Of a stretch of 64,000 nt of DNA, positions 30,967 to 32,732 are shown piece after piece (the stretch's first letter is position 1; each line of letters starts with the position of its first letter). A program made the position numbers and the translations under genes. This stretch comes from Eledone cirrhosa (Eukaryota): contig OZ024743.1 in NCBI GenBank assembly GCA_964016885.1, forward strand, positions 148,490,001 through 148,554,000, in the 5' to 3' direction. Under the pieces are notes generated by a model. That model made no database searches. It had not been told where the DNA came from and saw only the letters and a program-made list of their open reading frames with translations.

Positions 30967-32138
30967 ACTGAGGCCCTGGAAATACTCCTGGAAACAAAAA
31001 ATCTGGGGCAATTTCGGCTTGTAAACATAAATTGCACAAAACATTCCTGTATTACAGCCCCACATTATACCCTAACGGATAGTACGAACTATACGCGGAT
31101 ATTTTACGTCTTGATGTGGTAGCTAAGTATATGTTATGTTTATACCATTACTTATTTGTATAGGTAAGTATATATTACCTGTATGTTTTGTGTTAGTACG
31201 TATACTTTCTCGTACGTATATTTGATTGTATATGTTATGGCCTATATATGATATATTCTATTACATATGTTTTGGTTATGTGTATACTGGAGTTTTGCGT
31301 CTGTATGTGCATGCGGGTTCGTAAGTATGTAGGGTGTGTGTATATGTGTACTTTGTGTTTTCGTTGACGTACGTCTCCGAACATATGTGTATTTACATGT
31401 AGGTATGTGTGTGCGCTTGTTACATACGTATTTATTTATTCATATACGTTTATTTAATTATATGTATACACGCACACACACACATACACATATATATATA
31501 TATTTTTATATATACTTGTATGTGTATTTGGTGTATACATACGTATGCGTGCGGGTACAGGCGTTGCGTGGGTTCTGTATGTGTGTGCGAGGTTGTTTTT
31601 TTTTTGGGGGGGGGGGGTTAGTGTAGGTGCGTGTATTTGTATACCTATGGCGAGAGTTTTCGCGTATGTTGTGAATGTACGTATATGGATGCGCGAATGC
31701 ATTTATTTAATTTTAATTACCTCTGTAATTAATTTACTTTATTATTAACTCTGAAGCCGAGAATCATTTGGTTTCCTAGTTAGTATTTTAGTCTACGACT
31801 TCAGTTATACCATTTTCGTGGTTTTGTCTTTTCGTGCAATTGTTCTCCACGCGCCACATATGACGTATTATCCTTTTTTTTTCCGTTCATTGCCAGAGAA
31901 CGTCTCTATGAACCACCTAAGAGAACATTAGTCTACGACTTCTTTTATAACTCACTTAAAAGTGAGTTACAAACGAAACGAAATTTAATTTCGTTTCGTT
32001 ATTTGTTTTTATCGTCTCCGTTGAACCGGTACGTACTCACACTCTATGCAAATTAGTCTGCCCACTACTAATTTTCATAGAAAAAGCATATAACGATATG
32101 TGCTTTTACGATTCTCCAGAAGGGCCGGTAGATAGGTA

Positions 32139-32183
32139 AATATTGCTGATGAGTTGTAACAACAACGAAACTAGTTCAATATT
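32139..32183 (+). ncRNA. Minimal type I hammerhead ribozyme in a ~440-nt element (~31960-32400)
   Basis: AATATTG-CTGATGA-GTTGT(AACA)ACAAC-GAAA-CTAG-TT-CAATATT. All stems are perfect, with extended CCAGAAGG/CTTTCTGG pairing. Confidence 0.9.
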
Positions 32184-32732
32184 CCTTGTCTGGCTTTCTG
32201 GGGAATAGAGGAAAGGTGTTTCCTCAAAAACCAGTATGACTCTAAAAACCGGTTTGTCTGTGTGTTTACATACAGAATAGCTGGATACTCACAGTAAAGT
32301 AACCAGTGAAAGACTTGGTACATCTACATATGTATACGTGTGTGTATTCATATGCATACTAGTATTTCAGTATACATACATGGGTGTACATTTTTAACTT
32401 AATTATATATATATATATATATATATATATATATATATATATATATATATATATATATATATATATATATATACAGAGAGAGAGAGAGAGAGAGAGAGAG
32501 AAATATACACGGGTGTGTATGATTGTGTATAAAAGATTATATTAATAAGAGGAATTCCAACTTTGTCTGATTTACTCGTTTTATTTACAATCCTTTAAAG
32601 TTTATAATGGTATTATAATGAAATAGTATGATAGAATATTAAATGTTAAGTGTTAATTGAACAAGTACTTTCATGCTTTCGCAATCTTCAGGTTCTTAAT
32701 GTGTGGTGACAGTCAAGTTTGCAATTTTCAAC

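Follow-up and report, generated by a model that had tools for sequence, protein, structure and literature searches.

Metazoan non-LTR retrozymes are described as non-coding, AT-rich tandem units that carry one type I hammerhead each and occur in thousands of copies (PMC7229834). For metazoan type I hammerheads, a palindromic helix III and a dimer mechanism are usual (PMC4209133), and HHR_Amex1 of the axolotl cleaves poorly as monomer but well as dimer (PMC7229834). Nevertheless, just one of nine Xenopus retrozyme dimers was cleaved in vitro (bioRxiv 10.64898/2026.07.22.740005), thus an intact motif is no guarantee of activity. Insertions of Penelope-like elements are recognizable by partial tandems, a 5'-truncated copy in inverted orientation, a tail on one side only and a bias toward (TA)n (PMC8557442); the tail was explained by reverse transcription that starts at two fixed sites (PMC11167929). 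For cephalopods, our literature search found no report of retrozymes or hammerhead elements; preprint supplements lay outside this search and could list related families.

The element described here lies in a window of 64,000 nucleotides from Eledone cirrhosa (assembly GCA_964016885.1, contig OZ024743.1, positions 148,490,001 to 148,554,000), from whose first base all window coordinates below are counted. It belongs to a young, very abundant, non-coding retrozyme family of its own. The class, metazoan non-LTR retrozymes, is already known and the copy itself is therefore unsurprising. However, the preliminary description of this DNA had overlooked that the copy has its own young family with thousands of copies and Penelope-type insertion ends. 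We consider it very probable that this copy is a non-LTR retrozyme which cuts as a double hammerhead and whose RNA, likely a circle, serves a Penelope-like reverse transcriptase-endonuclease as template for insertion into TA repeats. What the sequence itself shows is that the fold covaries, that the repeat is abundant and homologous to a 420-nt family, that its insertions in (TA)n have two arms and two fixed ends, and that a coding frame is lacking.

The repeat, termed family B, is 466-469 nt long, and its window copy (31958 to 32404, plus strand) is a solo unit with slight 5' truncation. The preliminary description had put the element at 31960 to 32400, which gave the right location but not the right limits: the full-length unit, found in head-to-tail arrays, has 466 nt, of which the single window unit comprises 447 and is thus 19 nt short. 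It ends at the 'short' 3' end of the family and runs into the target microsatellite (TA)35 (end plus microsatellite at 32397 to 32473, plus strand), while the position of the family's 'long' 3' end is read through (32005 to 32012, plus strand). In the tail between these two fixed insertion ends resides the hairpin GAAACGAAATT/AATTTCGTTTC (31973 to 31999, plus strand). At the 5' junction, an inverted copy of about 10 nt of the unit's first bases (31947 to 31957, minus strand; self-match 31977-31940) is possibly an aborted second arm. Since the window copy has one hammerhead and lacks 19 nt, unit-length RNA could not be released from it by itself; it is likely an inert daughter copy. The families in the genome, in contrast to this solo copy, occur as high-copy, dispersed tandem units, each of which carries one type I hammerhead. 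An upstream element with a 141-bp repeat (31714-31949) was considered as part of the B element and rejected. It is a separate repeat with a 141-bp internal duplication and inverted arms that is found also at 10175-10952 and lies in broken form directly next to the B copy.

A DNA search yielded 133 family B matches from the 39 of 843 candidates that were scored, about 80 of them full length, with 97-100% identity. The sampled loci were top hits or the first places on contig C1 and do not constitute a random sample. Subfamilies of B are 466-470 nt long and differ from each other by 4-12%. Compared to the majority of sampled copies, the window copy shows four differences, three of which are A>G; two of these A>G changes fall within the long stem I extension with internal loop of canonical type I hammerheads (32110 to 32206, plus strand). 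The longest Met frame within the B unit comprises 50 aa, the ORF for reverse transcriptase (RT) plus GIY-YIG endonuclease of autonomous Penelope-like elements is absent from it, its GC content is 0.35-0.38 and an LTR structure is lacking. For comparison, the window also contains a family A copy with intact hammerhead (30424 to 30889, minus strand) and a two-armed family A insertion (7711 to 8853).

The type I hammerhead of the window copy spans 32139 to 32183 (plus strand), and all parts named in the preliminary description were found in place: stem I AATATTG (32139-32145) with CAATATT (32177-32183), the core CTGATGA (32146-32152), stem II GTTGT (32153-32157) with loop AACA and ACAAC (32162-32166), GAAA (32167-32170) and the palindrome ACTAGT (32170-32175), followed by U as residue 17 (32176). 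CUGANGA, GAAA and NUH surround three helices that are open at helix I, as is characteristic for type I, and cleavage is predicted after U32176 in the triplet GUU. That the copy keeps the core of its relatives was right as far as core and palindrome are concerned but not in identity, as the cut triplet is GUU in B, GUC in subfamily B3 and GUA in A. In addition, the G10.1-C11.1 pair of B is canonical, whereas U-U occupies this place in most copies of A. Throughout the 3.0-Gb genome, the core plus ACTAGT pattern gave 40,598 matches versus 11 for a reversed control, and the B-type stem II pattern gave 9,500 versus 0, thus the hammerhead is not a product of chance. Residue 17 is A, U or C among subfamilies and G in only 237 of the 40,598 matches. 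One long family A array (G000:C3:12272007-12294754 and beyond) comprises G17 in at least 37 listed units at irregular spacing and is probably ribozyme-dead. Among the best 150 Rfam matches, Hammerhead_HH9 is the only hammerhead (32128-32199; 38.6 bits, E 3.1e-6, under the gathering score of 52), and microRNA hits were discarded as TA-repeat artefacts. The predicted fold of 32110-32210 has -35.2 kcal/mol (z -4.7). Further minimal hammerhead-like motifs occur in short repeats at 6746-6937 and 13296-13585 of the window.

Previously, the copy was thought to share only patchy identity with the 420-nt family A. This does not hold: both are collinear over the whole unit, with identity in 247 of 369 aligned columns against the A copy of the window. 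If the hammerhead ends are left out, A versus B alignments score 108-115, whereas 60 shuffles each gave at most -27 to -38; per-column identity alone (69% versus 63-65% in shuffles) is non-discriminating. An older family C (loci L112, L159, L163 and L175-L197) is homologous to A and B as well; it carries ACATGT, a flipped closing pair of stem I and an octamer as in A and B. Folded independently, the A and B circles adopt an equal branched layout in prediction (z -7.8 to -12.5, 40 shuffles each). Other hammerhead-like sequences stand apart. A family of 310-312 nt with ACGCGT and without the octamer (L155, L160, L164) showed no detectable homology to A or B outside the hammerhead, and many old solitary motifs that combine ACATGT with a TAATAA-like loop of stem II (L148-L153, L156-L158, L161, L162, L166, L167) have flanks unrelated to families A-C.

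Twelve hand-picked hammerhead rows of A, B and C, one of them the single-insertion ACATGT variant treated below, were aligned for covariation. Among 192 cells of this alignment 93.2% are paired, compared to 29-47% for slid-partner controls, and 9 of the 16 hammerhead pairs changed on both sides. None of 500 shuffles matched the paired share or the covariation score and 11 of 500 matched the number of covarying pairs; these figures should not be read as a probability, because the shuffle ignores relatedness. A clean double change in stem II, GTTGT/ACAAC to GATGT/ACATC, separates the easily aligned subfamilies B1 and B2. Thus the earlier proposal that compensatory changes reflect selection on RNA structure is supported by the nine double-changed pairs and by the B1/B2 change, with relatedness uncontrolled. 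Outside the hammerhead, 73-76% of the pairs predicted for one family are formable in the other versus 27-56% with slid partners, and double changes are found in the domain-closing helix and in the tail hairpin. The formal covariation test for these regions is modest (P 0.006-0.28, nine comparisons), and the sequence-only alignment misregisters some helices.

The ACTAGT palindrome of stem III (32170 to 32175, plus strand) would leave one pair and a tetraloop in a monomer, whereas two copies could join through it in a helix of 6 bp. Both loop bases of ACUAGU lie next to each other, and only a second copy could offer them partners. All four palindromic loop forms exist in different families of the genome: TA in the 40,598 matches given above, AT in 1,047 (control 54), and GC in 95 and CG in 3 among the first 100 of 19,368 matches. 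The latter two counts are not independent because they stem mostly from arrays of one family, and the 310-312-nt family dominates the 19,368 matches. Single changes of the second loop base amount to 621 (control 73), about 1.5%, and those of the first base, with a two-base prefix, to 502 (control 11). Such singly changed loops are found in lone copies or scattered within arrays. Of the 24 listed motifs whose stem II resembles neither A nor B, 23 have a palindrome. Among homologous families, the palindrome change corresponds to one event (A/B versus C). We also considered whether ACATGT marks a compensated lineage within family A and rejected this: it has five matches at two loci, alternates with ACTAGT units and represents a single insertion plus one copy. 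In the family A array L154 (G000:C1:319892900-319897500), ACATGT units alternate with ACTAGT units, and neighbours could not pair there as a perfect double hammerhead; the repeat thus has a period of two units, which would be expected from an uncut dimer template.

Folding predictions point in the same direction as the comparison, with reservations. The active monomer is predicted at +0.1 kcal/mol, an open form at -6.0 and a misfold at -11.8, in which the CUG of the core pairs with UAG of the loop. In contrast, two strands are predicted to fold spontaneously into the double hammerhead (-27.0 kcal/mol). For a real two-unit RNA the predicted values are -208.1 for the double form, -197.8 for two monomeric forms and -213.0 kcal/mol unconstrained; the double hammerhead thus lies 4.9 kcal/mol above the unconstrained minimum. 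This gap and the pairing of core with loop in the monomer folds count against the overall reading. Alternatively, the hammerhead might act as a monomer through contacts of loops I and II, the palindrome being inherited rather than selected. The conserved loop II (UAANAA) and stem I internal loop, the good cleavage of coral and mussel monomers (PMC7229834) and the fact that A and B have ACTAGT in common by descent would fit to this. However, the active monomer is predicted to cost about 6 kcal/mol more than the open form, four palindromes occur without any non-palindromic subfamily among the matches listed, and the axolotl ribozyme of like architecture cleaves poorly as monomer and well as dimer (PMC7229834); we therefore regard monomer activity as improbable. 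The view of the preliminary description that a short palindromic stem III permits dimeric cleavage conforms to usual metazoan type I behaviour (PMC4209133) and agrees with comparison and folding. Based on sequence comparison and models, family B is likely to cleave as a two-copy dimer.

In B, the arms terminate at one of two sites of the unit, 228-233 (short) or 299-303 (long), nearly always in (TA)n, and arms of subfamily A1 terminate at 217-220 or about 276, sites that align with the B ends. Two-armed B insertions have their arms back to back in (TA)n and combine one short with one long end in 28 of 28 cases, a set that comprises the non-redundant insertions with both outer ends on fixed sites; L084 with L241 forms one more such short plus long insertion. 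As exceptions, one arm ends elsewhere in at least four two-armed insertions (L005, L035, L069, L237), and an arm of L023 stops 5 nt early. Among dispersed two-armed insertions, 5' truncation is variable, while the fixed 3' ends are strand-specific. TA-tailed loose ends at both fixed sites were also found in independent contigs, which possibly derive from the source sample (library type unrecorded). A large target-site duplication was seen in none of 11 inspected insertions, and (TA)n at both flanks in 11 of 11 would obscure any. Two copies end in (CAT)n rather than (TA)n, the B copy L035 and the Penelope-like copy L102. In a single case, L005 (L005:1260), an arm stops one base short of the predicted cut, as would result if the end of a cleaved RNA had been copied.

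In their sequence features the B insertions match the published Penelope-like footprint, and insertion into TA repeats by Penelope-type enzymes is likely. SINE-like mobilization by a LINE appears very improbable to us. RTE-type ORFs are indeed present in the window (25472-29196, 40329-44060) and 3' flanks of B are simple repeats, but two fixed internal 3' ends in opposite arms with a one-sided tail are described as Penelope-specific (PMC8557442, PMC11167929), and the window self-comparison revealed no similarity between the B unit and the RTE copies. Similarly poor are the prospects of a satellite or MITE-like repeat that spreads at the DNA level with the ribozyme as decaying relic. Long arrays with periodic variants and one array with G17 in at least 37 units would fit to it; yet the scattered two-armed insertions, whose ends are fixed and strand-specific and whose 5' truncation varies, the strand-biased A>G changes described below and the stem covariation all speak against it. 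For dispersal, DNA-level spread is thus largely refuted, while it may account for the growth of the longest arrays.

Evidence for an RNA intermediate comes from the variants that distinguish insertions. If private variants are pooled, strand bias is absent (17 A>G versus 17 T>C). However, of those confined to a single sampled insertion and fixed there in every unit, 9 of 14 are A>G and none is T>C, compared to 20 A>G among 191 single-unit variants (Fisher P 8e-6). Three of these nine A>G variants belong to one sublineage found at seven loci; without this L084 cluster, 6 of 11 array-fixed variants are A>G (Fisher P 0.0008). The bias points to an edited RNA intermediate and would fit to A-to-I editing of double-stranded RNA before copying, but is no proof that each insertion stems from one circle. 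The sublineage itself (L084, L234-L241; 7 loci, 69 units) is a very young 468-nt form of B, with units identical across loci and arrays of up to 25 units. L084 was also considered as a case of one template molecule per insertion, which was rejected, as its three clustered A>G mark the seven-locus sublineage. Arrays with mixed units occur, and the B array L070 (G000:C1:375633500-375643400) shows a variant period of three units; together with the G17 array, mixed-unit arrays indicate array growth without cleavage. Closed 466-nt joints in the contig runs X4 and X5 were excluded as RNA evidence, as were all six contig runs of this kind, because a circle is indistinguishable from a tandem array.

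These observations also bear on the nature of the template. Instead of a circle, a linear, uncleaved multimeric transcript of a master array might be copied, the hammerhead being kept for RNA stability or promoter release. Identical 468-nt units at seven loci, as expected from a homogeneous master, and the mixed and periodic arrays would fit to this. Furthermore, 5' junctions do not cluster at the cut site (1 of 39 within 5 nt), and hammerhead mutants had no effect on insertion by the anole Penelope protein in vitro (PMC11167929). In contrast, A>G-biased variants that are fixed in all units of both arms arise more easily from a short edited template that is copied repeatedly, and circles were shown for retrozymes of coral, mussel and axolotl (PMC7229834). 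Consequently, we see the linear template as possible, though rather doubtful, and favor a circular one.

How such transcripts arise might be indicated by the octamer ATGCAAAT (32046 to 32053, plus strand), a candidate snRNA-type promoter element that is located 79-100 nt upstream of the core in A, B and C. Of 12 A/B representatives 10 retain it, as do 9 of 16 copies of family C, whereas the sequence with which it is predicted to pair is variable; this suggests a role at the DNA level. The promoter of newt satellite 2 includes an octamer. It was reported as an internal promoter of snRNA type (PMC2220036). The three clustered A>G of the L084 sublineage destroy the octamer, but this sublineage is still spreading. 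Since its octamer-less units are identical across loci and form arrays of up to 25, the octamer is not needed in the copied RNA.

As helper, a young Penelope-like family is a candidate only, put forward on sequence grounds. Its intact frame of 775 aa combines RVT_1 with a C-terminal GIY-YIG domain (G000:C4:28495000-28504900, L228; L200-L227), and a fragment of a young element with the GIY-YIG endonuclease end lies within the window (3388 to 4800, plus strand). The family comprises 147 scored copies at 95-100% and resembles the retrozymes in its two-ended anatomy, with two 3' ends about 63 nt apart, while the hammerhead of its pseudo-LTR shows a U3-A8 core variant and the palindrome ACCGGT. In a post hoc comparison of TA junctions, one end of this family ranked 1 of 964 in similarity to the long end of A and 4 of 964 to that of B; its other end had no match to the retrozyme ends. 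No homology was detectable between the B unit and the pseudo-LTR of the one Penelope-like family examined, and the loci examined contained no Penelope-like/retrozyme hybrid copies, only nesting in TA runs. Several other mobile elements reside in the window: a Penelope-like element (35400-38850) that is two-armed, has RT and GIY-YIG-like frames and carries a minimal hammerhead at 38825, another two-armed Penelope-type repeat with its own tail and a minimal hammerhead at 33785 on the minus strand (9686-10057, 33598-34020, 36820-37031), RTE-type LINE copies (25472-29196, 40329-45771, 54495-55374), a Tc1/mariner transposase (14588-15517) and a tRNA-like hit inside a repeat (9426-9496).

Taken together, the following life cycle could be envisioned. 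Tandem copies would be transcribed, possibly from an internal promoter that contains the octamer, and the ACUAGU palindrome would allow the transcripts to cleave themselves in double-hammerhead form. The cleaved RNA might then be ligated to a circle and would be subject to A-to-I editing. Finally, a Penelope-like reverse transcriptase-endonuclease acting as helper would copy the RNA into TA repeats, presumably with both strands of a cut serving as primers at two fixed positions of the RNA. One might speculate further that a living radiation of at least 60,000 hammerheads exists, in which the loop bases co-switch through four palindromes as in a natural dimer-rescue experiment, one branched fold is retained by entire RNA circles of 420-470 nt, a Penelope-like enzyme repeatedly copies circles edited by ADAR, starting from both strands of a cut, and families cut only with their own kind. 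This wider picture is tentative, and we rate it somewhat short of even. Nevertheless, three homologous families with natural variants of stems and palindrome offer a test system for monomer, dimer and cross-family cleavage, and very young insertions with fixed ends and A>G bias open a proposed step to testing, namely that a Penelope-like enzyme reverse-transcribes retrozyme RNA.

In comparison with described systems, family B agrees with metazoan non-LTR retrozymes (PMC7229834) also in its strongly self-paired predicted circle and in the co-occurrence of Penelope-like elements. It differs by a unit of 466-469 nt, compared to 150-450 bp, and by its two-armed insertions with fixed ends, which the accessible part of that report does not describe. 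Like axolotl HHR_Amex1 and newt satellite 2 (PMC7229834), B has a one-pair helix III, a palindromic tetraloop and loop I-II contacts, while its palindrome ACUAGU and its cut triplet GUU are different; the U-U at the base of helix II in family A resembles HHR_Amex2 (PMC7229834). With Penelope-like elements (PMC8557442, PMC11167929) B shares partial tandems, an inverted 5'-truncated copy, the tail at one end, the preference for (TA)n and, presumably, two fixed starts of reverse transcription. However, the tail is longer in B (about 70 nt) and A (56-59 nt) than the 30-40 bp given there, and B is devoid of an ORF. Finally, vertebrate retrozymes, viewed as Penelope derivatives (bioRxiv 10.64898/2026.07.22.740005), correspond to family B in class and proposed helper, and their arrays were explained by local DNA amplification. 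While that study, with a sample free of molluscs, relies on co-occurrence and pseudo-LTR homology, the evidence presented here comes from insertion ends and substitution bias.
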